A DNA stretch of 12,398 nucleotides from Candidatus Glassbacteria bacterium (GCA_016934095.1 JAFGTO010000244.1:1-12398), one strand, 5' to 3'; positions 3-11,546 are shown, counted from the stretch's first letter. The notes: generated by a model from the letters alone, not told the origin. Made by a program: numbers and translations.

Positions 3-1916
3 TTCCGCAGCAACCGGAAGAACCTCGACCGGATGCTGTACAGCAAGGGAGCCGCCCTGATGGAGTCGGTGCTGCACGACGCTGAGAACGCAGTGCTTGC
101 AGAGCGCGAGATCTCGGAACAGCTCGCCTCCCGCCTGGCGGATAACGCCAGGTACGCCCTGATGCTGGCCGACCGGGGAGCGCAGGCCGGGCGGTCGCTG
201 GCAGCCGCGGCCGCGGAGAACGGGCTGGTCCGCCTGGAGGTGTACGGTCCGGACGGGGGACTGATCGCAACTAGCGACCCGCGCGGCTCACCCGGAATGC
301 TGCCCGCATCCCTGGATGGCCTGGCCGCCGGGGATGAGCCGCTTATCAGGCTGATCCAGGACCCGGCGGGATCCGGGAACGAGCTCCTGGCGGCCGCCGT
401 GCGGGGTGGGGACGGCCGGGCGGGAGTGGCCTATGCCCTGTCGGATGAGCTCTTCGCGCTCCAGCGCCGGCTGGGAATCGGCCTGATCCTCGACGACCTC
501 TCCGCAGTGGAGGGGGTGGCTTACGCCGTGCTCCAGGACACTCTGGGGATCATCGCGGCCTCGAGCGACGTGGTGGAAATCGGCAGTATCGGCAAGGACC
601 CGTTCTTCCCCCTGGCCGCCGGGGAGATCAAGGGGCGCCGCCTGGATTTCTTCGGCGAGGAGGTCTACGAGCTGGCCGCCCTGTTCCAGCTCGGCGGCGA
701 GAGTTTCGGTTACCTGAGGGTCGGGCTCTCGACTGAAGAAGTACGCTCGATTGCCGAGCTGGACCGCAAGAGGTTCGGTTTCGGCATGGCGGTGCTGGCC
801 GTGCTGGCCGCGGTGGCTGTGCTGCTCTACTTTTTCCGCCTCCGCCACCTGCACCTGGAGCAGGAGCACTCGCGCATCAAGAGCTTCTCGGACAGCGTGC
901 TCGAATCCATGGGCGATGCGGTGATTGTCGCCGACCGGGACGGCAGGGTCCTGCTGGTCAACCGTGTCGCCGAAAAGCTATGCGGCACCGACCGGCCGCC
1001 CCTGCCGGGCCGCATGCTCTCGGAGGTGGCTCCCGGCCTGGCGGAAAAGCTCGGAAGCCTGGACACAGATGAGCCGCTGGTCTTGGAGACCGAGCTGCCC
1101 CGGCCCGGCTCTGCAGGACCGCTGCCCGTGCTGGCCACCGCCTCACCCTTATTGGTTGCCGGCAGCCGCTACACTACGGTTATCCTGCGCGACCTGACCG
1201 ACCGCAAGCGCGCCGAGGAGCTGGCCCTGCGCAACGAGAAGTACCAGGTCATGGCCGAGGTCTCGGCCTCGGTGGCCCACGAGATCCGCAACCCGCTCAA
1301 CGCGATCGGGATGAATGTCCAGCGCCTCAAGATGGAGTTCACCCCGCAGGAGGGGAGCCGGGGAGAATACGAGGAGTTCATCGAGATAATCCGCCGCGAG
1401 GTGGAGAGGATCAACGGGATAGTCGAACAGTACCTGACCCTGGCCCGTTTCCCCGGGCCGAAAAAAGAAATGGCGAGGATCGACAGGCTGCTGGCCGATA
1501 CCCTGCAGTTTTTCGCTGCCGAGCTCGCCGGGCGGCGGATCGCGGTGAAAGCGGATATCGCGCCCGCCGGGCCGTTCCCTTTCGATCCCGGGCAGTTGAG
1601 ACAGGTTTTCACCAACCTGATCAAGAACGCCGCCGAAGCCATTGAAAGCGAGGGGACCCTGCTGGTGGCCGGACGCCCGCTGCCGGGGTACTACCAGGTC
1701 TCCGTGCAGGACAGCGGCCCCGGGATCCCCGCAAGCGTGCGGGACAAGGTTTTCGAGCCGTTTTTCAGCACCAAGCAAAGTGGGCTGGGTCTTGGATTGG
1801 CCATTGTCCAGCGCATTGTCGCCGAGCACGGGGGTAATATATCCCTGGAAAGCAGCGGCCGGCCGGGGACCACTTTCGTGGTCACCCTGCCTGCAGACAA
1901 GGAGGATAAAACATGA
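3..1916 (+). CDS. Sensor histidine kinase (periplasmic sensor domain, TM, PAS, HisKA, HATPase_c); 5' end probably truncated by the window edge
   Basis: Frame is open from base 3 and the first in-window Met is at 33. There is no RBS before 33 and no N-terminal TM, so the true start is probably upstream. TM segment FGFGMAVLAVLAAVAVLLYFF. PAS-like SVLESMGDAVIVADRDGRVLLVN. H-box SASVAHEIRNPLNAIGMNVQRL. N-box LIKNAAEAI. G-boxes QDSGPGIP and GLGLGLAIVQRIVAEHGG. Strong GC3 codon bias. Confidence 0.85.
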   Translation, partial: FRSNRKNLDRMLYSKGAALMESVLHDAENAVLAEREISEQLASRLADNARYALMLADRGAQAGRSLAAAAAENGLVRLEVYGPDGGLIATSDPRGSPGMLPASLDGLAAGDEPLIRLIQDPAGSGNELLAAAVRGGDGRAGVAYALSDELFALQRRLGIGLILDDLSAVEGVAYAVLQDTLGIIAASSDVVEIGSIGKDPFFPLAAGEIKGRRLDFFGEEVYELAALFQLGGESFGYLRVGLSTEEVRSIAELDRKRFGFGMAVLAVLAAVAVLLYFFRLRHLHLEQEHSRIKSFSDSVLESMGDAVIVADRDGRVLLVNRVAEKLCGTDRPPLPGRMLSEVAPGLAEKLGSLDTDEPLVLETELPRPGSAGPLPVLATASPLLVAGSRYTTVILRDLTDRKRAEELALRNEKYQVMAEVSASVAHEIRNPLNAIGMNVQRLKMEFTPQEGSRGEYEEFIEIIRREVERINGIVEQYLTLARFPGPKKEMARIDRLLADTLQFFAAELAGRRIAVKADIAPAGPFPFDPGQLRQVFTNLIKNAAEAIESEGTLLVAGRPLPGYYQVSVQDSGPGIPASVRDKVFEPFFSTKQSGLGLGLAIVQRIVAEHGGNISLESSGRPGTTFVVTLPADKEDKT

Positions 1917-3268
1917 AAAGCCACCGTATCCTGGTGGTGGAGGACGAGGAGAACCAGCGCCGCACCCTGGCCGGTTTCCTGAGGAAAAAGGGTTACCGGA
2001 CCGAAGAGGCCCCTTCCGGGGAGGCCGCCCTGGAGCTTGTCCGCAAGCACCTTTACGACCTGGTCCTGACCGACCAGAAAATGGGGGGCATCGGCGGCCT
2101 GGAGCTGCTCAGGGAGGTCAAGGCCGCCAACCCGGAAATCGAGGTGGTCCTGCTGACCGCCTTCGGAGACCTCCGCTCCGCGGTCCAGGCGGTCCGCCAG
2201 GGCGCTTTCGACTACCTGGCCAAGCCGGTGGACCTGGAAGAGCTGGAGCTGACCCTCGAGCGGGCCCTGGAGCGCAGGCAGCTCGTGGTGGAAAACCGGA
2301 TGCTTCGCGAGTCGCTCGGCGAGCGGCAGAGCTTCGAGGAGATCATCTCCGTCAGCGATGCCATGGAGTCTGTGCTCAACATGGCTTCCCGGGTGGCCCG
2401 GGTCGACTCTCCCGTGCTGATCACCGGGGAGTCCGGCACCGGCAAGGAGATGGTGGCCAAGACGATCCACCAGGCCAGCGTGCGCAGGGACCAGCCTTTC
2501 GTGGCGGTAAACTGCGCCGCCCTGAACCAGAACCTCATCGAGAGCGAGCTGTTCGGCCACGAGAAAGGGGCCTTCACCGGCGCCATCCGTCAGCGCCAAG
2601 GCAAACTCGAGTCCGCCGACAGGGGGACCCTGTTCCTCGATGAGCTCGGGGAGATCAGCCCCGAGATCCAGGTTAAACTGCTGCGCTTTCTCCAAGAGCA
2701 CTCGTTCGAGCGGGTCGGCTCGGACCAGGTGCAGCAGGCGGACGTGCGCCTGATCGCCGCTACCAACCGCGACCTGGAGGCAGCCATCCGTCAGGGCGAT
2801 TTCCGCGAAGATTTCTACTACCGGATCAACGTGGTCAATATCCAGATCCCGCCCCTGCGCTCGCGCAGGGAGGACATCCGCCCGCTGATTGATTTCTTCC
2901 TGCAGAGAAACCGCGAGCGTCTCGGGCCGAAGACCTTCTCCAGGCAGGCGCTCGACTCCCTGCTGCGCTACGATTTCCCGGGAAACATCCGGGAGCTGCA
3001 GAACGTGGTCGAGCGGGCCATGGTGCTGGCCAGGAACGAGGTGGTCGACCTGGCCGACCTGCCCCCCTCGGTCACTGCCAGACAGGATAACTTTCCCGGT
3101 GTCCGCGAAATCGGCGGCTCGCTCACCGAGGAGATAGAGAACCTGGAAAGGCGCATGATTACCGCCGCCCTGGAATCCTGCGACAAGGTTCAGGTGCGGG
3201 CCGCGGAAAAGCTGGGAATCACGGAAAGGAACCTGCGCTACAAGATGAAAAAGCTGGGAATCAAATAA
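1913..3268 (+). CDS. Sigma-54-dependent response regulator, NtrC/AtoC/ZraR family (REC + AAA+ sigma-54 activator + Fis-type HTH)
   Basis: Start ATG 1913 overlaps the kinase stop TGA 1914-1916 (ATGA coupling), with a GGAGGA RBS at 1901-1906. REC domain with phospho-acceptor LVLTDQKMGG. Walker A GESGTGKE. GAFTGA motif ESELFGHEKGAFTGA. Walker B/arginine-finger region. C-terminal HTH AAEKLGITERNLRYKMKKLGI. Confidence 0.9.
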   Translation: MKSHRILVVEDEENQRRTLAGFLRKKGYRTEEAPSGEAALELVRKHLYDLVLTDQKMGGIGGLELLREVKAANPEIEVVLLTAFGDLRSAVQAVRQGAFDYLAKPVDLEELELTLERALERRQLVVENRMLRESLGERQSFEEIISVSDAMESVLNMASRVARVDSPVLITGESGTGKEMVAKTIHQASVRRDQPFVAVNCAALNQNLIESELFGHEKGAFTGAIRQRQGKLESADRGTLFLDELGEISPEIQVKLLRFLQEHSFERVGSDQVQQADVRLIAATNRDLEAAIRQGDFREDFYYRINVVNIQIPPLRSRREDIRPLIDFFLQRNRERLGPKTFSRQALDSLLRYDFPGNIRELQNVVERAMVLARNEVVDLADLPPSVTARQDNFPGVREIGGSLTEEIENLERRMITAALESCDKVQVRAAEKLGITERNLRYKMKKLGIK

Positions 3269-3446: not shown

Positions 3447-3461
3447 TGGCACCGTTCTTGA
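3447..3461 (+). promoter_or_regulatory. Sigma-54 (-24/-12) promoter candidate
   Basis: TGGCACC-GTTC-TTGA matches TGGCACG-N4-TTGCW. The GG and GA(C) elements have the exact 10-nt spacing, with only the -12 C replaced by A. It lies about 75 bp upstream of ATG 3537, directly downstream of a sigma-54 activator gene. Confidence 0.55.
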
Positions 3462-3536: not shown

Positions 3537-4388
3537 ATGAAAACCCTGAAAATTCTGCCGGTAATCACTTTTATCGGCGCATTGATGACTTTGAATCCCG
3601 GACTGTACGCCCAGGATGCCGATGACGCAGCCGCGGACGATGGGGCCGCTGTAGCGACGCCCCTGGGCGGAGCCTACCGCCACGGCATGAGGGATGTCGG
3701 GTTCCGCGGCTTTACCGACGAGGACGGCAACGGGCTCAACGACTATCTAGAGGACTCGGACGGCGACGGGGTGGTCAACGCCCACGACCCGGACAGCGAC
3801 CTTTATCGCGGCGAGCCGGGTACGGCTCTGGGACGCGGCCTGGGCTTCGTGGATGAGGACGGCAACGGGCTCAACGACTATCTAGAGGACTCGGACGGCG
3901 ACGGGGTGATCAACGCCCACGACTCCGACAGCCCGCTCTACCGCGACCCCCGCGCCAGGGGCGCTTTCGGGCGCGGCCTGAGCTTTGTGGATGAGGACGG
4001 CAACGGGATCAACGACCGTCTCGAGGACTCGGACGGCGACGGGGTGATCAACGCCCACGACCCGGACAGCCCGCTCTACCGCGACCCCAGCGCCAGGGGC
4101 GTTTTCGGGCGCAGGCTCCGCTTCATCGATGAGAACGGCGACGGTGTCAGCGACTGCCTCGAGGACTCGGACGGCGACGGGGTGATCAACTCCCTCGACC
4201 CCGACAGCCCGCTGTATCGCGGCAGCGCGGCCGGGAACACGGTCAGGGGCGCACGCCTCGGCTCGGCCGGCAAGACTGTCATGCAGCGCGGGTCGGCTTT
4301 CAGCGGACAGTCGCGCTCTACCGGAAGGGCAAGAGTGAGAACGCCCGGGAGCTGCACAACCGCTCCCGCCGGCAGCGGCAGCAATTAA
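3537..4388 (+). CDS. Secreted acidic repeat protein with tandem DxDxDG (thrombospondin type 3 / EF-hand-like) calcium-binding loops
   Basis: RBS AGAGGAGG at 3524-3530. Signal peptide MKTLKILPVITFIGALMTLNPGLYA|QD. About 3.7 copies of a 45-46 aa unit EDGNGLNDYLEDSDGDGVINAHDPDSPLYRDP.ARGAFGRGLSFVD. Each unit carries two back-to-back 12-residue loops, DEDGNGLNDYLE and DSDGDGVINAHD, fitting DxDxDGxxDxxE/D. Confidence 0.8.
   Translation: MKTLKILPVITFIGALMTLNPGLYAQDADDAAADDGAAVATPLGGAYRHGMRDVGFRGFTDEDGNGLNDYLEDSDGDGVVNAHDPDSDLYRGEPGTALGRGLGFVDEDGNGLNDYLEDSDGDGVINAHDSDSPLYRDPRARGAFGRGLSFVDEDGNGINDRLEDSDGDGVINAHDPDSPLYRDPSARGVFGRRLRFIDENGDGVSDCLEDSDGDGVINSLDPDSPLYRGSAAGNTVRGARLGSAGKTVMQRGSAFSGQSRSTGRARVRTPGSCTTAPAGSGSN
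3720..4217 (+). repeat. In-frame tandem DNA repeat, 135-138 bp unit, about 3.7 copies, inside CDS 3537-4388
   Basis: Units begin at 3720, 3855, 3993 and 4131 with GAGGACGGCAACGGG...GAGGACTCGGACGGCGACGGGGTG(A/G)TCAACGCCCACGAC. Copies 1-3 are nearly identical at the nucleotide level and copy 4 is more diverged. Confidence 0.85.
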
Positions 4389-4464: not shown

Positions 4465-5136
4465 ATGGGTAAAAGAATTACATACGGCGCGGCAGTGGCG
4501 ATTTTTCTTTTTTGCGGCACTCTTTCCGCACAGCAGGAAAAGGCCCGGCCGGAGACTCGGAAATCAACGGTCCAGCCCGGCGGGTCCGCAGCCCAAAAAG
4601 CAGCCGACAATAAAGAACCCCAGACGCCTGTCGCCGTATTCGGCTTCCAGGACCGGGACCGCGACGGCAAGAACGACCTGTTCCGGGACGCCGACGGCGA
4701 CGGGATCAACGATATCACCAAGAAACCCTACCCTCACAAGTTCAAGTTCGCAGATGAGGACGAGGATAAAATCAACGACTTGTTCGTGGATGCCGACGGC
4801 GACGGGGTGAACGACCTTGAAGTCAAGTTTATCGATGCCGACAGCGACGGGATCAACGACAATATCATCGATGTCGACAAGAACCATATCAACGACATCA
4901 CCGGCCTGCGCTATACCAGCAAGTCCCTGCGGGGGTACAAGTACGGTTTTATCAAGGAGGAGCGCCTGCTGATGATGCGCGGCTTCATCGATGAAGACGG
5001 GGACGGGATCGCGGATGCACCCCGGGGCATGATGCTCAGAAAAGGCATGCGCGACCGGATTATCGACCGGGACGGCGACGGGATCGACGACAGGAGGGAG
5101 ATGATGCGCAAATTCAGACCAGGACCCAGGAGATAG
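4465..5136 (+). CDS. Secreted paralogous DxDGDG-loop repeat protein (degenerate Ca-binding loop repeats)
   Basis: Signal peptide MGKRITYGAAVAIFLFCGTLSA|QQ. Loops DRDRDGKND, DADGDGINDI, DEDEDKINDL, DADGDGVNDL, DADSDGINDN, DEDGDGIADA, DRDGDGIDDR. Codon composition is more AT-rich than the first paralog. Ends TAG 5134-5136, 3 nt before the next start. Confidence 0.75.
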   Translation: MGKRITYGAAVAIFLFCGTLSAQQEKARPETRKSTVQPGGSAAQKAADNKEPQTPVAVFGFQDRDRDGKNDLFRDADGDGINDITKKPYPHKFKFADEDEDKINDLFVDADGDGVNDLEVKFIDADSDGINDNIIDVDKNHINDITGLRYTSKSLRGYKYGFIKEERLLMMRGFIDEDGDGIADAPRGMMLRKGMRDRIIDRDGDGIDDRREMMRKFRPGPRR

Positions 5137-6563: not shown

Positions 6564-6669
6564 TTAACAGAGCCGCAAAAATGACCTCCGGGCCCGCCCT
6601 CTCGAGCCCGGCGCCAAATACTTTCAGGCGAAGACATCCTTGAACCTGCCCATCAGAGAGGAGTTTTCC

Positions 6670-7038
6670 ATGAGCAGTACTTATCATGAACCATCCCAGG
6701 AGCTGCCTCCGGAAGTCCGCGATACCCATCGCGCACTGGCGAGCCTGATCGAAGAGCTGGAGGCTATCGACTGGTATAACCAGCGGGCCTCTCTCACCAC
6801 CGACCCGGAGCTCAAAGAGATTGTCCAGCACAACCGGGACGAGGAAATCGAACATGCGGCCATGGCCCTGGAATGGCTGCGCAGGAGGATCCCCAAATTC
6901 GACGAGGAACTGAAGACCTACCTGTTCTCTTCCGGCCCCATTACCGAAATAGAAGAAGCCCTGGCAAAAGAACCTGCTGAAAACGACGCGCCGGCCCCGG
7001 GCAGCCTGGGAATCGGCTCGCTGCGAAAGGAGAGCTGA
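6670..7038 (+). CDS. Encapsulated ferritin-like protein (EncFtn) with C-terminal encapsulin cargo-loading peptide
   Basis: RBS AGAGGAG at 6654-6660, 9 nt before ATG 6670. The track start at 6640 is a TTG with no RBS, so 6670 is preferred. EncFtn signature EELEAIDWYNQRA...DPELKEIVQHNRDEEIEHAAMALEWLRRR (metal-binding Glu/His residues). C-terminal tail ...PGSLGIGSLRKES matches the GSLxIGSLK-type encapsulin targeting peptide. The stop lies 2 nt before the shell gene. Confidence 0.85.
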   Translation: MSSTYHEPSQELPPEVRDTHRALASLIEELEAIDWYNQRASLTTDPELKEIVQHNRDEEIEHAAMALEWLRRRIPKFDEELKTYLFSSGPITEIEEALAKEPAENDAPAPGSLGIGSLRKES

Positions 7039-7040
7039 CG

Positions 7041-7841
7041 ATGAGCGACATTCTGCGACGTTCACTGGCTCCGCTGACGGAAGCCGCCTGGAAGGAAATC
7101 GACAGGACGGCCTCGAACATCCTCAAAGCAAGCCTCACCGGGCGCAAGCTGGTTGACTGCGACGGGCCCCACGGCCTGGAGCTGGGTGCGGTGAACCTGG
7201 GCCGCCTGGCAATCCCCGAGAAACATAAGAGGGCGGGTGTAAGCTGGGGCGTGCGCGAGGTGCTGCCGCTGGTGGAGTTACGGGTACCCTTCCAGCTCGA
7301 CCAGATGGAGCTGGACTCGATCTCCAGGGGCTCGAAGGATGTCGACCTGGGTCCGCTGGAAAAAGCCGCCAGGGCAGTGGTCGATTTCGAGGAATCCGCA
7401 ATCTACAAAGGCTTTCCGGAGGCCAGGGTCCAGGGCATACTCAAAGCCGCAAAACACGCCCCGCTCAAGATCCCCGCCGCACGCGAAGACTGCCCCAAGG
7501 CCGTGGCCGAGGGGATCAAGCTGCTGTCCGAGGCGGGAATCGAGGGGCCTTACGCGCTGGTCCTCTGCCTGGAGTGCTACCATGAGCTGATCGCCACCGC
7601 CAAGGGATACCCTACTTTCCGGGTGGCGGAGCGCCTGGTGGAAGGCGGGATATTCTACAGCAGCGCCCTCAAGGGCGGCGTGCTGCTGTCCGTGCGCGGC
7701 GGAGATTTCGAGCTGACCCTGGGCCAGGATATCTCCATCGGCTTCTCGGGCTGCACCGCGGACAAAGTGGAGCTCTATTTTGCCGAGTCTTTCACTTTCC
7801 GCGTGCTGGAGCCGCTGGCCGCTGTCGAGCTGAAACCCTGA
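7041..7841 (+). CDS. Family 1 encapsulin nanocompartment shell protein (HK97 fold; Linocin_M18 family)
   Basis: RBS AAAGGAGAG at 7026-7034. Sequence is collinear with the T. maritima encapsulin: LRRSLAPLTEAAWKEID, GRKLVDCDGPHG, WGVREVLPLVELRVPFQL..ELD..RG..DVDLGPLE, GIEGPYALV, RGGDFELTLGQDISIGF, ESFTFRVLEP. The 266-aa length is typical. Confidence 0.9.
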   Translation: MSDILRRSLAPLTEAAWKEIDRTASNILKASLTGRKLVDCDGPHGLELGAVNLGRLAIPEKHKRAGVSWGVREVLPLVELRVPFQLDQMELDSISRGSKDVDLGPLEKAARAVVDFEESAIYKGFPEARVQGILKAAKHAPLKIPAAREDCPKAVAEGIKLLSEAGIEGPYALVLCLECYHELIATAKGYPTFRVAERLVEGGIFYSSALKGGVLLSVRGGDFELTLGQDISIGFSGCTADKVELYFAESFTFRVLEPLAAVELKP

Positions 7842-7899: not shown

Positions 7900-7935
7900 G
7901 GGGCACATTTATGCATGTGCCCCATTTTATTCTCC
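7900..7935 (+). terminator. Rho-independent terminator after the encapsulin operon
   Basis: GGGGCACAT-TTATGC-ATGTGCCCC (9-bp stem, 6-nt loop) followed by ATTTTATTCT, about 60 bp after stop 7841. Confidence 0.6.
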
Positions 7936-8111: not shown

Positions 8112-9473
8112 ATGCGATCAGCCCGTAAAGTCTTAGCTGTCGTTGTCATTGGCACGGTTGTGGCGGGAGCGGGCTTACTGGCCCAGGTCAAGGCAGGCGA
8201 CGCCGCCCATGGCACCAGGCAGTACGACCAGTATAAAAAACCCAAGTTCTGCGGTACTTCCTGCCATACCGACTTCTATCGCCAGTGGCGCCAGGAGATG
8301 CACTCCCAGGCCTATGTCCACCACTGGGACGAGATCGAGTATTTCAAGCTGGCCGTGCCCCACGCGGAAAAAGACCCGGCCGTGGCCGGGGTCAGGGATG
8401 GCTGTAATGGCTGCCATGCGCCGGTGTCTTTCCTGGCGGGCGACACCCCTCCGCCCAGGCCCGAGGAAAACAGCCGGGCCAACGAAGCTGTCACCTGCGA
8501 CCTGTGCCATACTATCACCGGTTTCGAGTCAGACACTCCCCACAACTTCAACTATTATTCCGAGCCGGGGAACGTGAAATACGGGCCCAGGGGCGGGGTA
8601 ACCTCTCCTGAGCACGTGATCGAGGTCAGCAAGTTCCTGCCTTCCGCAGAGTTCTGCGGCACCTGCCATAACGAGAAAAGCCCTTACGGGGTATGGGTCA
8701 AATCGACCCACCTCGAGTGGAAGGAAGGGCCTTACGCAGCCGAGGGAGTCCCCTGCCACGACTGCCACATGCCAAGGGCCGAGGGCAGGAGGGCCTCGAT
8801 GGGTAAGGCCTACCCGGACATCCGTCAGCACCTGTTCCACGGCGCTCACGACAACGGCAAGATCAGGGGCACGGTGGAGCTGCGCATCCACCCGGATATC
8901 GATGAGACCGAGCCGGGCGAAAAAGTGGTCTTTACCGTGGTGCTCTTCAACCAGAAAGCCGGCCACAAGTTCCCCACCGGCTCGGTGGAGGACCGGATTG
9001 TCTGGCTGCATGTCGAGGCCACCGATGCCCAGGGCAAGGTCTATCACCTGCCGGTGGACCCCAAGGGTTTCGAGGGGGAAGAGTATACGATCGCCCGGGA
9101 CGTCCTGGCCTACCAGGACATGGGCATAGCGCTGAACGACCCCGGCTTCCAGGGCGTGCAGCGGGATGGGGTCCCGGTGGGAGACCGTATTTTCCGCATG
9201 CCCTATTTCGACCCCCAGGGCCGGATGACGATCCAGCAGTGGAACACCAAGAGCCTGGGTGTAGACTACCGGATACCCCCCAGGGGTACCAGGGTGGAGA
9301 CTTTCTCCTTCAGCCTGCCGTTCGAGGTCGCCCCGGGCAGGATGACTGTCGAAGCCACGCTCAACTACAGCAAGCTGGTCAAACCGGTGGCAGAGCTGCT
9401 CGAGGTGCCGCCGGATGAAACTGAAACAGTTGTGGTCAACGAGCATTCTACCGTAATCAACGTATTCGACTGA
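8112..9473 (+). CDS. Multiheme c-type cytochrome (five heme-binding motifs) with a C-terminal heme-free, probably beta-sandwich, domain
   Basis: Signal or anchor peptide MRSARKVLAVVVIGTVVAGAGLLAQVKA. Heme motifs CGTSCH (CX3CH), CNGCH, CDLCH, CGTCH and CHDCHMP. The GVPCHDCHMPRAEG segment resembles the NrfA-family CxDCHMP heme, but the family's distal heme is missing. The last about 200 aa are Cys-free. Confidence 0.85.
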   Translation: MRSARKVLAVVVIGTVVAGAGLLAQVKAGDAAHGTRQYDQYKKPKFCGTSCHTDFYRQWRQEMHSQAYVHHWDEIEYFKLAVPHAEKDPAVAGVRDGCNGCHAPVSFLAGDTPPPRPEENSRANEAVTCDLCHTITGFESDTPHNFNYYSEPGNVKYGPRGGVTSPEHVIEVSKFLPSAEFCGTCHNEKSPYGVWVKSTHLEWKEGPYAAEGVPCHDCHMPRAEGRRASMGKAYPDIRQHLFHGAHDNGKIRGTVELRIHPDIDETEPGEKVVFTVVLFNQKAGHKFPTGSVEDRIVWLHVEATDAQGKVYHLPVDPKGFEGEEYTIARDVLAYQDMGIALNDPGFQGVQRDGVPVGDRIFRMPYFDPQGRMTIQQWNTKSLGVDYRIPPRGTRVETFSFSLPFEVAPGRMTVEATLNYSKLVKPVAELLEVPPDETETVVVNEHSTVINVFD

Positions 9474-9483
9474 AGAAGGAAAA

Positions 9484-10665
9484 ATGAAAAAAAAGACGTT
9501 TTACACCCTGGTCTTTTCCCTGGCGGCCGCCGGTCTGTGTTCCATCTTTACGGCCGAGTCCGCCTATGCTGTCCCGGCTTTCGCCAGGAAATACCGGCTG
9601 AGCTGCAAGACCTGCCACCAGCCGATCCCCAGGCTGAAACCTTATGGGGATGAATTCGCCGGCAACGGTTTCGTGCTCACCGACCAGGAAGCGCCCAGGT
9701 ATTTTGTCGAGACCGGGGACGACGAGCTCTCGCTGATCCGGGATTTCCCCATCGCCGTGCGCCTGGAAGGGTTCATCAACTACAACGACGTGGCGGGAAA
9801 AAGGTCGGACTTCAACACTCCATACCTGTTGAAGCTGCTCTCCGGCGGGGCCCTGACCAAAAACATCGCCTATTACTTCTATTTCTACATGGATGAGAGA
9901 GGAGAGGTGGCCGGTGTCGAGGACGCCTATGTCATGTTCAACAACCTGCTGGGAGTCGACCTGGATATCTACGCAGGCCAGTTCCAGGTCTCCGACCCCC
10001 TGTTCAAGCGGGAGCTGCGCCTGACCCTGGAGGACTACCAGGCCTACAAGTCCACTCCGGGCCGCTCGGGGATAAACCTGACCTATGACAGGGGTATCAT
10101 GGTAACTTACGGGTTGCCCAGCGGCACCGACCTGATTTTCGAGGTGGTCAACGGCAACGGCTTGAGCGAGGCGGACGAGGACAAGAACTTCGACTCCGAC
10201 AGGTACAAGAATTTCATGGGACGCATCTCCCAGGATGTCGGTAAATACCTGCGCCTGGGTGTGTTCGGCTACACCGGCCGGGAAAAGAGCGCCGGCCGGC
10301 TGAACCAGGCCTGGCTGGCCGGTCCCGACCTGACAGTGTCAATCAACGAAAAGTTCGAGCTGAACCTGCAGTATGTCGAGAGAAGGGACACCAACCCTTA
10401 TTTCCTCAGCTCCGGCTACCGGGACCTCAAGACCAGGGGCGCGCTCGGCGAGATGGTGATCGCCCCCCGGGGCAGCGACGGCAAGGTCTACCTGGTGGGG
10501 CTGTTCAACTGGACAGACTCGGACGACAATTCGGAGGATTTCAAGAGCCTGACCGGTCATCTCAGCTACCTGCTGCGCAGGAACATCCGTCTGGTCGGCG
10601 AGGTAACCCACAACTGGGCCAATGATACCAACCGCCTCGGCGTGGGTTTTGTCTCGGCGTTCTAG
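9484..10665 (+). CDS. cyc2: Cyc2-like fused monoheme cytochrome c-porin (outer membrane; candidate Fe(II) oxidase or extracellular electron conduit)
   Basis: RBS GAAGGAAAA, start 11 nt after the cytochrome stop. Signal peptide MKKKTFYTLVFSLAAAGLCSIFTAESAYA|VP. A single CKTCH heme motif lies within 15 residues of the mature N-terminus inside PAFARKYRLSCKTCHQP, which matches the conserved N-terminal cytochrome module of Cyc2. The remaining about 340 aa are rich in Tyr/Gly/Asn beta-strand patterning and end GVGFVSAF (terminal Phe), consistent with a porin barrel. The family assignment is from memory, not from a search. Confidence 0.6.
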   Translation: MKKKTFYTLVFSLAAAGLCSIFTAESAYAVPAFARKYRLSCKTCHQPIPRLKPYGDEFAGNGFVLTDQEAPRYFVETGDDELSLIRDFPIAVRLEGFINYNDVAGKRSDFNTPYLLKLLSGGALTKNIAYYFYFYMDERGEVAGVEDAYVMFNNLLGVDLDIYAGQFQVSDPLFKRELRLTLEDYQAYKSTPGRSGINLTYDRGIMVTYGLPSGTDLIFEVVNGNGLSEADEDKNFDSDRYKNFMGRISQDVGKYLRLGVFGYTGREKSAGRLNQAWLAGPDLTVSINEKFELNLQYVERRDTNPYFLSSGYRDLKTRGALGEMVIAPRGSDGKVYLVGLFNWTDSDDNSEDFKSLTGHLSYLLRRNIRLVGEVTHNWANDTNRLGVGFVSAF

Positions 10666-10701
10666 CTGTCTTTGCTCGGGATTTCACCATAGAGCCGGAT
10701 A

Positions 10702-10730
10702 GGGGGGACCTTCCAAGGCCCCCCTTTTTT
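10702..10730 (+). terminator. Rho-independent terminator after the cytochrome/porin pair
   Basis: GGGGGGACC-TTCCAA-GGCCCCCC followed by TTTTTT, about 35 bp after stop 10665. Flanking CCGGAT/ATCCGG could extend the stem. Confidence 0.75.
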
Positions 10731-10943
10731 ATCCGGTATACCGACTCCCCGGTTTTAGCTGAATCGGCCAGCGAGCGCATTCCCCGCAGCTCGCTGCCGG
10801 GAGTCTTCAATCAGCACAATCAGGAACAGACCCCGGTCCGGCTCATGCTCCCCGGCTGCGAGTTGTTAATAAGGTCGCACGCTTGGTGCAACTGATTATT
10901 AGCTGATCACAGGGCTATTATTACACCCTCCGCACCATAAACT

Positions 10944-11063: not shown

Positions 11064-11546
11064 ATGGACGAACAGCCACAAGCCGAATCATTGGGAAAGG
11101 TCCGCAATCCTGTGGTCATGGTACTCCTGTTGATCATCACCATAAATATTTACTGGGTTGTCTGGCTGTACAAGATATATTCCGAGATTCGCAGGCGGTC
11201 CACCGATGTTACCGGTGTAACCCCGGGTAAAGCCGCCGGTTTTATCTTCATCCCGGTATTCAATATCTTCTGGGCGTTCTATATCATCGTGGATTTCCCC
11301 CGCGCCATCCGCCGTCTCCAGGAGGCCGACCCGCCCACCGGGAATCTCCTGAACAACTCTCTGGTAGTGATCCTGCTGATCGTGGGCTTGCTGATCAACA
11401 TTATTATTGCCCAATTCCAGCCTGCTTTCCTGCTGCTGGGCGAAATACTGCTGATTGCAGGTCTGCTGATGTCGCAAGAGGCCCTGAACGGCCATTGGCG
11501 GGCACATCAAGCCGCAGCGGGCGGGCCGGCGCCGGAGCAATCCTGA
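11064..11546 (+). CDS. Small polytopic membrane protein, DUF4234-like, with an internal duplication
   Basis: Strong RBS AAGGAGG at 11051-11057. Two homologous halves, NPVVMVLLLIITINIYWVVWLYKIYSEIRR and AAGFIFIPVFNIFWAFYIIVDFPRAIRR, each with an IY/IF-W-x-x-Y motif as in DUF4234-family proteins. Two further hydrophobic helices follow. Codon usage is markedly AT-richer than neighbouring genes. Confidence 0.65.
   Translation: MDEQPQAESLGKVRNPVVMVLLLIITINIYWVVWLYKIYSEIRRRSTDVTGVTPGKAAGFIFIPVFNIFWAFYIIVDFPRAIRRLQEADPPTGNLLNNSLVVILLIVGLLINIIIAQFQPAFLLLGEILLIAGLLMSQEALNGHWRAHQAAAGGPAPEQS

Follow-up and report, generated by a model that had tools for sequence, protein, structure and literature searches.

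Two adjacent genes in a contig of Candidatus Glassbacteria bacterium raise the question of whether a porin-cytochrome that resembles the iron oxidase Cyc2 is an iron oxidase here as well, and what the pentaheme cytochrome encoded beside it contributes. The window, by which we mean the whole 12,398-nt stretch analysed (GCA_016934095.1 JAFGTO010000244.1:1-12398), carries a gene for a pentaheme c-type cytochrome, referred to as MHC5, followed by a gene for a Cyc2-type fused monoheme cytochrome-porin, referred to as Cyc2L. The original prediction, made from the sequence alone, had read the two as a candidate module for extracellular electron transfer or Fe(II) oxidation. The module is compact (two genes, about 2.6 kb), and we consider it reasonably probable that the pair is a self-contained, co-inherited two-protein conduit that carries electrons over the outer membrane to or from small soluble redox species. 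Fe(II) oxidation stays a possible role, but nothing here shows it; most hosts are organotrophs, Fe(III)-reducing lineages among them, and outward reduction of Fe(III) or humics competes seriously with it.

Cyc2 was defined by Keffer et al. 2021 (PMC8406198) as a protein with a signal peptide, one CXXCH, an upstream AXPXFAR[Q/K][T/Y] motif that these authors call unique to Cyc2 and place five residues upstream from the heme site, a PXL motif at four residues downstream, a minimum length of 365 amino acids (375 in the FeGenie preprint) and a 16-strand porin modelled on OprO/OprP. Judged by its sequence and predicted structure, Cyc2L has every one of these features, so that the Cyc2 architecture proposed for it stands. 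Its N-terminus, MKKK-TFYTLVFSLAAAGLCSIFTAESAYA followed by VPAF, reads as a Sec signal peptide with a KKK n-region, a hydrophobic core and cleavage between AYA and V, and a single heme site, C41-K-T-C-H45, lies within AVPAFARKYRLSCKTCHQPIPRL at the mature N-terminus, as had been noted. The upstream motif is present as A29-V-P-A-F-A-R-K-Y37, with three residues between Y37 and C41, and the PXL motif as H45-Q-P-I-P49-R-L51, four residues past the CXXCH. The remainder of the 393-residue protein, which had been described as about 340 residues of barrel-like sequence ending in Phe, is strand-rich and predicted to form a beta-barrel of about 16 strands with OprP as its best structural match, and it closes with the C-terminal signal ...GFVSAF.

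These features are conserved. Exactly one CXXCH was found in 78 of 79 Cyc2L homologues (from 80 species genomes) and a terminal Phe in 75, and the pattern ..P.F.R.....C..CH...P.L was matched by 73, which rules out chance as the origin of the motif; lack of the conserved N-terminal motif in an alignment, which had been named as part of the grounds for abandoning the Cyc2 assignment, was not what we observed. The Cyc2L alignment (A1) shows no variation at P31, F33, R35, C41, C44, H45 and P49, and conservation of 90% or more at L51. Hardly any variation is seen in a long loop, GQFQVSDPLFKRELRLTxEDY (residues 165-185), which may fold inward in the manner of loop L3 in general porins and help to hold the heme domain. 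Searches of PDB sequences with Cyc2L or the Cyc2L profile gave no match.

MHC5 consists of a signal peptide, a heme domain of about 220 residues and a heme-free beta-sandwich of approximately residues 250-453, the last corresponding to the large heme-free domain that the original prediction had assigned to it. The probable cleavage site lies between LLA and QVKAG and there is no lipobox; the protein is read as soluble and periplasmic, in line with the periplasmic redox partner of the porin that had been proposed. In Bacteroidota-type bacteria, substrates of signal peptidase I typically have Gln at +1. The five heme sites of the predicted 453-residue pentaheme protein were recovered with one correction, namely that four are CXXCH (CNGCH, CDLCH, CGTCH, CHDCH) and one is CX3CH (C47-GTS-C-H52). 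This CX3CH is kept in 63 of 70 MHC5 homologues and aligns, with a one-residue gap, with the first CXXCH in 5ZE8, the structure of Thermochromatium tepidum pentaheme cytochrome c552, and because of this conservation and alignment the term pentaheme is reasonable. All 10 Cys of MHC5 lie within the five heme motifs, and the MHC5 alignment (A2) contains no other invariant Cys column. It does contain seven invariant non-motif His and several invariant Met, which would suffice to six-coordinate the five hemes and fits an electron carrier. Mean column identity is 75%, heme-free domain included, and the invariant stretches of that domain comprise FNQKxGHKFPTGSVEDR, AYQDMG and GDRIFRMPYFDPQGRMTIQQWNT. 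More than 2,400 MHC5 homologues were found at about 70% identity.

The pairing of the two genes was followed through related loci. An MHC5 relative (60-86% identical) lies directly 5' of Cyc2L on the same strand in 78 of 80 species-representative genomes; of the two exceptions, one is cut by a contig end and only locus L059 truly lacks an upstream MHC5. Reciprocally, Cyc2L lies directly 3' of MHC5 in 75 of 80 metagenome loci anchored on MHC5, and the remaining five have less than 200 nt past the gene, so that all 75 loci that can be judged are paired. The synteny survey that had been suggested thus found the pentaheme gene beside the porin in both directions, and the description of the pairing as unusual holds against canonical Cyc2 and fails within this clade, where the pairing is the rule. 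It is a fixed trait of a large clade and not an oddity of the Glassbacteria contig. Every other gene family is limited to 11 or fewer of 81 loci, and for this reason we take the conserved unit to be exactly these two genes. Their pairwise identity matrices correlate with r = 0.66 over 142 pairs, a value reached by none of 500 permutations, as expected for genes that are inherited and evolve together.

The pair also has the layout of a single operon. The spacer between the two genes of the window is 10 nt, and not 11 nt as first given; with its GAAGG ribosome-binding site it indicates translational and operonic coupling. In homologous loci the gap is mostly 8-15 nt, apparent overlaps in some of them arising where a simple open reading frame caller took an upstream start. 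Downstream of Cyc2L is a strong intrinsic terminator (the 80-nt stretch 10666-10745 folds at -31 kcal/mol), while the terminator scan found none in the 10-nt gap and placed its other matches in the region within coding sequences. The tight coupling and the shared terminator of the original prediction are accordingly real.

By sequence, MHC5 is a distant relative of T. tepidum c552 and of MccSep (ExtKL). The match to 5ZE8, its nearest relative of solved structure (phmmer E 3.3e-8, profile E 5.6e-8), aligns in two stretches, hemes 1-3 and hemes 4-5. The two proteins are alike in length (435 versus 453 residues), in their five heme sites in the N-terminal half and in the C-terminal beta-sandwich, and they differ in that identity is only about 18% and that the first site of c552 is CXXCH rather than CX3CH. 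A Foldseek search with the AlphaFold 2 (AF2) model of MHC5, a poor model with a predicted local distance difference test (pLDDT) score of 52, returned 5ZE8 first and then Ig-like domains, and was used only as agreement with the sequence match. T. tepidum c552 has reportedly been described as a low-potential cytochrome. Pfam matches of MHC5 are partial (Cytochrom_NNT and Cytochrome_C554). The NCBI record name NapC/NirT was rejected: PF03264 matches residues 174-226 only (profile positions 31-79 of 174), and 453 residues, five heme sites, an extra 200-residue domain and a cleavable-looking signal peptide do not fit a tetraheme protein with a membrane anchor. NrfH/TorC-type models scored far under their cut-offs.

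MccSep is the periplasmic homotetrameric seleno-polysulfide reductase of Geobacter sulfurreducens, with a five-heme alpha-helical cap, an Ig-like stem and an active site formed by the heme-ligating Cys239 and Sec325 from a loop of the Ig-like domain (bioRxiv 10.1101/2025.11.18.688581). The heme motifs and the strand-rich C-terminal half of MHC5 fit this pentaheme plus Ig-like layout, and MHC5 is likewise encoded beside the gene of an outer-membrane barrel, MccSep being encoded in extHIJKL together with the porin-like ExtI. ExtI is a larger barrel and is not known to carry a heme. The similarity of MHC5 to the ExtKL model (NCBIfam NF040886) amounts to 59.7 bits over residues 127-310 only, against a cut-off of 250, and neither Cys239 nor Sec/Cys325 has a counterpart. 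As MHC5 has no Cys outside its heme motifs, the His/Cys-heme plus Sec/Cys chemistry of MccSep is excluded, and MHC5 as a polysulfide reductase of the MccSep type was rejected.

Compared with canonical Cyc2 (Mariprofundus ferrooxydans Cyc2PV-1, Acidithiobacillus ferrooxidans Cyc2, Leptospirillum Cyt572), Cyc2L is alike in its signal peptide, single N-terminal CXXCH, AXPXFAR[Q/K][T/Y] and PXL motifs, length of about 400 residues and 16-strand OprP-like barrel. It differs in three respects. Canonical Cyc2 is reported alone or with mono- or diheme partners of the Cyc1/c4 type, whereas Cyc2L is encoded with a pentaheme cytochrome; its barrel is far more conserved, at about 45-80% identity across phyla as opposed to the 17-23% tabulated for cross-cluster identities of reference Cyc2 (PMC8406198); and its hosts are mostly organotrophs. 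The pair is also comparable to MtrAB(C), MtoAB and PioAB, in which an outer-membrane barrel and a multiheme cytochrome facing the periplasm are encoded in one operon. An Mtr-like complex was nevertheless rejected, since the Cyc2L barrel is too small and itself bears a heme, in contrast to a large heme-free barrel around a decaheme cytochrome.

The family is large, and the pair is co-inherited in hundreds of species of sediment and subsurface bacteria: one scan matched at least 426 species genomes, with thousands of protein clusters. Among 90%-identity clusters, Cyc2L relatives number more than 5,260; identity to the best 120 is 55-80%, and these belong to Ignavibacteriota, Melioribacteraceae, Bacteroidota, Zixibacteria, KSB1 and Aminicenantes. 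When 1.84 billion representatives were searched with a profile, the result was 2,856 clusters at E <=0.001 and 175 at E <=1e-30, and distant full-length members keep P-x-F-[AS]-R ... C-x-x-C-H ... P-x-L. Mean column identity in the close family is 61%, barrel included. Among the carriers are one isolate, Rosettibacter primus 4148-Me (L021), and a metagenome-assembled genome (MAG) assigned to Melioribacter roseus (L051). Five MAGs with the cassette typical of the Fibrobacteres-Chlorobi-Bacteroidetes (FCB) group (L014, L025, L055, L063, L069) are titled Hyphomicrobiales, Clostridia or Clostridiales, labels that look unreliable given their gene content, and one MHC5 homologue (P0123) is labelled 'archaeon'.

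A proteobacterial sister family (the P0340 group) was found in MAGs labelled Gallionellaceae, Thiobacillaceae, Acidiferrobacterales and Nitrospinota. It aligns with Cyc2L from end to end (hhalign probability 100, E 1e-61, 361 columns at 30% identity), and the two families have PYLxKLLS, YYFY, GQFQVSD, RExRLT, TYDRG and VNGNGI in common, the sister proteins being longer (about 430 versus 393 residues) and having longer loops. Neither of the two sister members checked has a multiheme cytochrome next to it. In one locus of the Thiobacillaceae type (L081, 7289-7933), a gene for a 214-residue protein with a faint PEGA-domain match overlaps the 3' end of the porin-cytochrome by 14 nt; this protein may be a partner different from that of the FCB-type clade. 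Met151 of the close family (EDAFxMFNN, in a barrel strand) adjoins a near-invariant His of the sister family (EDAWFRHDD). A homologue search from a distant proteobacterial member led to another uncharacterised conserved family and to no named Cyc2 of an iron oxidiser.

In the proposed conduit, the Cyc2L heme, in or at the narrow barrel, would exchange electrons with small soluble species outside the cell, and MHC5, which we infer docks on the periplasmic face of the barrel, would extend this one-heme gate into a multi-heme relay reaching periplasmic or inner-membrane partners. Because the single heme sits in a narrow barrel, the outside partner would have to be small and soluble; candidates are Fe2+, chelated Fe3+ and quinone or humic-type mediators, while a mineral surface is unlikely. 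Monoheme Cyc2 has similarly been argued to act on dissolved Fe2+ (PMC8406198). On our analysis iron would be the most likely substrate, because of family precedent, three members of the Cyc2 family having been found to oxidise Fe(II) in vitro (PMC8406198), and because ferritin-like genes recur next to the cassette.

Several observations weigh against this reading of the pair. Homology of Cyc2L was traced only to uncharacterised proteobacterial fused cytochrome-porins, its Cyc2 class being assigned by motif and architecture. Its cytochrome domain was modelled poorly (pLDDT <50 for residues 25-71), so that the model does not fix the position of the heme, and no invariant Met or second His occurs in the first 100 residues of A1. 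Neither A1 nor the sister-family alignment (A3) has such a residue in the cytochrome domain; the distal heme ligand could come from the barrel wall, in the region of Met151. In the AF2 model of MHC5, strands are confident only in parts. Ferritin-like neighbours occur in a minority of loci and probably reflect few independent events. The hosts are mainly organotrophic anaerobes or facultative anaerobes, not lithotrophic iron oxidisers, and the FeGenie authors flag the function of cluster-3 cyc2 as uncertain and note cluster-3 cyc2 in iron reducers, namely Geobacter and Rhodoferax.

As to which way electrons flow, we put forward with somewhat less than even confidence that the pair oxidises dissolved Fe(II) at the cell surface and passes the electrons inward via MHC5; ferritin-like genes nearby would make sense in cells faced with abundant Fe(II). 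A serious alternative, though tentative and in our estimate rather unlikely, is that the conduit works outward, with electrons from organotrophic metabolism passing from MHC5 to the Cyc2L heme and on to soluble Fe(III) chelates, humic quinones or shuttles. The hosts are consistent with this (Ignavibacteriota, Melioribacteraceae, Zixibacteria, Aminicenantes and Bacteroidota, some lineages of which are cited as Fe(III) reducers), as is the presence of cluster-3 cyc2 in iron reducers; a dedicated multiheme periplasmic partner is moreover the usual design of outward porin-cytochrome systems, the nearest solved relative of MHC5 has reportedly been described as low-potential, and the sister family, without such a partner in the two members checked, is found in MAGs labelled with lithotroph-rich taxa. 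Outward flow is opposed by the characterised Cyc2-family proteins, all of which oxidise Fe(II), and by the decaheme MtoA and PioA, multiheme partners that serve inward transfer, and the ferritin-like neighbours fit the handling of excess Fe(II) at least equally well. Within the conduit reading, we lean only slightly towards Fe(II) oxidation over outward transfer.

An improbable third explanation is that MHC5 is a periplasmic enzyme on the MccSep/c552 scaffold acting on another, small substrate, which would enter through the barrel, the heme of the barrel then being a gate, a sensor or an auxiliary redox site. A parallel would be extHIJKL, where a porin-like protein is encoded with MccSep, and the ExtKL similarity of residues 127-310 is weak but real. 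The two-domain layout resembles that of MccSep, whose active site lies between the heme domain and an Ig-like-domain loop, and the extreme conservation of MHC5, including the heme-free domain, H240/H243/H246, GHKFPTG and the seven non-motif His, would fit an enzyme as well as a carrier. The ExtKL score far below its cut-off and the confinement of Cys to the heme motifs, with no Sec, nonetheless make the MccSep mechanism inapplicable; MHC5 also has no CXXCK or other known catalytic-heme motif, and the Cyc2 heme signature on the partner barrel would be left unexplained. What remains of the probability falls to other physiological roles. Iron homeostasis in place of respiration (assimilatory Fe(III) reduction with Fe2+ entry through the pore, or protective oxidation of Fe2+ at the surface, coupled to ferritin-like storage) is quite unlikely; the encapsulated ferritin and encapsulin genes of the window, the DUF2202 ferritin-like lipoprotein genes of 15 other loci and the sensor kinase and sigma-54 regulator near the pair in several lineages are set against most loci having no ferritin-like gene, an encapsulin operon with its own terminator that is inserted relative to locus L003, and a five-heme relay that exceeds the apparent needs of iron uptake.

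These distinctions matter because no marker gene for microbial iron oxidation is in wider use than cyc2. Genes resembling cyc2 in these phyla are already in the literature: FeGenie-based surveys report cyc2, mostly of cluster 3, in Ignavibacteriales, Zixibacteria, Aminicenantes and Krumholzibacteria, taxa that are largely those carrying the Cyc2L family, and surveys already count genes of this clade (Ignavibacteriales, Zixibacteria, Aminicenantes) as iron-oxidation potential. In the searchable literature, where absence is not proof, we found no description of the obligate pentaheme partner, the c552/MccSep ancestry or the conservation of the clade; the pair is described neither in papers that contain 'Cyc2' together with 'pentaheme' nor in two recent multiheme surveys, and the omics and genome papers on Melioribacter roseus do not mention the two genes. 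Because of the constant pentaheme coupling, the conservation far above that of canonical Cyc2 and the organotrophic hosts, we regard the clade as a separate two-protein module whose direction and substrate need testing before it is counted as an iron oxidase. It is conceivable, if still doubtful, that the pair represents a distinct, widespread class of outer-membrane conduit, a Cyc2-type heme-porin with a pentaheme cytochrome of the c552/MccSep fold, whose electron flow in anaerobic organotrophs (FCB group, Zixibacteria and Acidobacteriota) may be outward or reversible. If so, many 'iron oxidation (cyc2)' calls in metagenomes for these groups would point to the wrong process, and one of the common ways in which soluble Fe(III) or humics are reduced in sediments and the subsurface would have been overlooked. 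The module is small, common and present in the isolate R. primus 4148-Me, and is thus directly testable.

All genes of the window are read from the + strand (Table 1), and an Rfam scan of the window gave no match. The encapsulin operon upstream of the pair has its own terminator; it was considered as a part of the module and rejected, as encapsulin genes are absent from all 160 related loci. In L003, the kinase, regulator, repeat proteins and outer-membrane protein are ordered as in the window and are followed directly by the pair with no encapsulin, so that the operon is a lineage-specific insertion relative to that locus. A different ferritin-like gene, encoding a DUF2202 lipoprotein (...FLGC), belongs to the cassette or adjoins it in 15 of 161 loci, in most of them immediately 5' of MHC5 (L101, 2148-2762; L103, L111, L115-L117, L137, L138, L141, L155, L043, L100, L134 and L027). 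A modest and independent hint of an iron substrate is thus given by two unrelated ferritin-like genes, each of which has come to stand by the cassette in a different lineage. The slot of the DUF2202 gene 5' of MHC5 is the one held by the encapsulated ferritin in the window.

Table 1 Features of the 12,398-nt window (coordinates counted from its first nucleotide)
Feature	Coordinates	Strand	Basis or remark
PAS histidine kinase gene	33-1916	+	Pfam
Sigma-54-dependent response regulator gene	1913-3268	+	Pfam
Sigma-54-like promoter TGGCACCGTTCTTGA, 5' of Asp-rich repeat gene	3447-3461	+	1 mismatch
Two secreted Asp-rich repeat protein genes	3537-4388, 4465-5136	+	
Putative outer-membrane protein gene, 421 aa	5140-6405	+	
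Encapsulated ferritin (EncFtn) gene	6640-7038	+	
Family-1 encapsulin shell gene	7041-7841	+	
Terminator of encapsulin operon	7900-7923		Terminator scan
Pentaheme c-type cytochrome gene (MHC5), 453 aa	8112-9473	+	
MHC5 heme site 1, C47-G-T-S-C-H52 (CX3CH)	8250-8267	+	Kept in homologues; aligned to 5ZE8
MHC5 heme site 2, C98-N-G-C-H102	8403-8417	+	Invariant in A2
MHC5 heme site 3, C129-D-L-C-H133	8496-8510	+	Cys, His invariant in A2
MHC5 heme site 4, C182-G-T-C-H186	8655-8669	+	Cys, His invariant in A2
MHC5 heme site 5, C215-H-D-C-H219	8754-8768	+	Cys, His invariant in A2
MHC5 heme-free C-terminal beta-sandwich (Ig-like) domain	8859-9470	+	AF2 strands, Foldseek, conservation
Intergenic spacer AGAAGGAAAA, 10 nt, with GAAGG ribosome-binding site	9474-9483	+	
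Cyc2-type fused monoheme cytochrome-porin gene (Cyc2L), 393 aa	9484-10665	+	
Cyc2 signature A29-VPAFARKY-RLS-C41KTCH45-QPI-P49RL51	9568-9636; heme site 9604-9618	+	Keffer 2021 motif
Cyc2L predicted beta-barrel, ~16 strands	9703-10662	+	
Intrinsic terminator of two-gene operon, GGGGGGACCUUCCAAGGCCCCCC then UUUUUU	10702-10730	+	Hairpin 10702-10724, U-tract 10725-10730
DUF4328 membrane protein gene	11064-11546	+	

The kinase and sigma-54-dependent regulator of the window are a possible regulator of the region. Homologues of the two lie near the pair in L003, L011, L024 and L027, and the N-terminal sensor region of the kinase matches, at 28-31% identity over 300-600 residues, kinases transcribed divergently from the repeat-protein/cytochrome cassette in about 11 metagenome loci (including L134, L143, L094 and L114, there within the first ~1,800 nt on the minus strand). 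Near-consensus sigma-54 promoters were found 63-80 nt 5' of MHC5 in 5 of 142 loci (L006, L011, L024, L031, L040) versus none in coding controls, and two of these loci also carry relatives of the window kinase and regulator. The 270 nt 5' of position 8112 contain no sigma-54 promoter or repeat, and the sigma-54-like site listed in Table 1 is supported by its position, the count over the whole window being not above chance.

The Asp-rich repeat proteins (e.g. FVDEDGNGLNDYLEDSDGDGVINAHDPDSPLYR) have no Pfam match, and their repeats resemble ones that bind calcium or other metals; in 21 of 161 loci a relative is encoded near the pair (e.g. L101, 1439-2083; L143, 2142-2783). No family match was obtained for the 421-residue protein that follows them, which is probably an outer-membrane barrel, given its signal peptide and C-terminal ...LEKAF; it has relatives in L003 (56%) and L085 (62%) and, weakly, in L011, L024 and L027. 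A repetitive multiheme protein, absent from the window, is encoded 1.5-2.5 kb 3' of the pair in the closest relatives of the window (L001, 4195-5244; L002, 7349-8266), with many C-x-x-C-H-N-G-P-S-G-H-P copies spaced ~40 residues apart.

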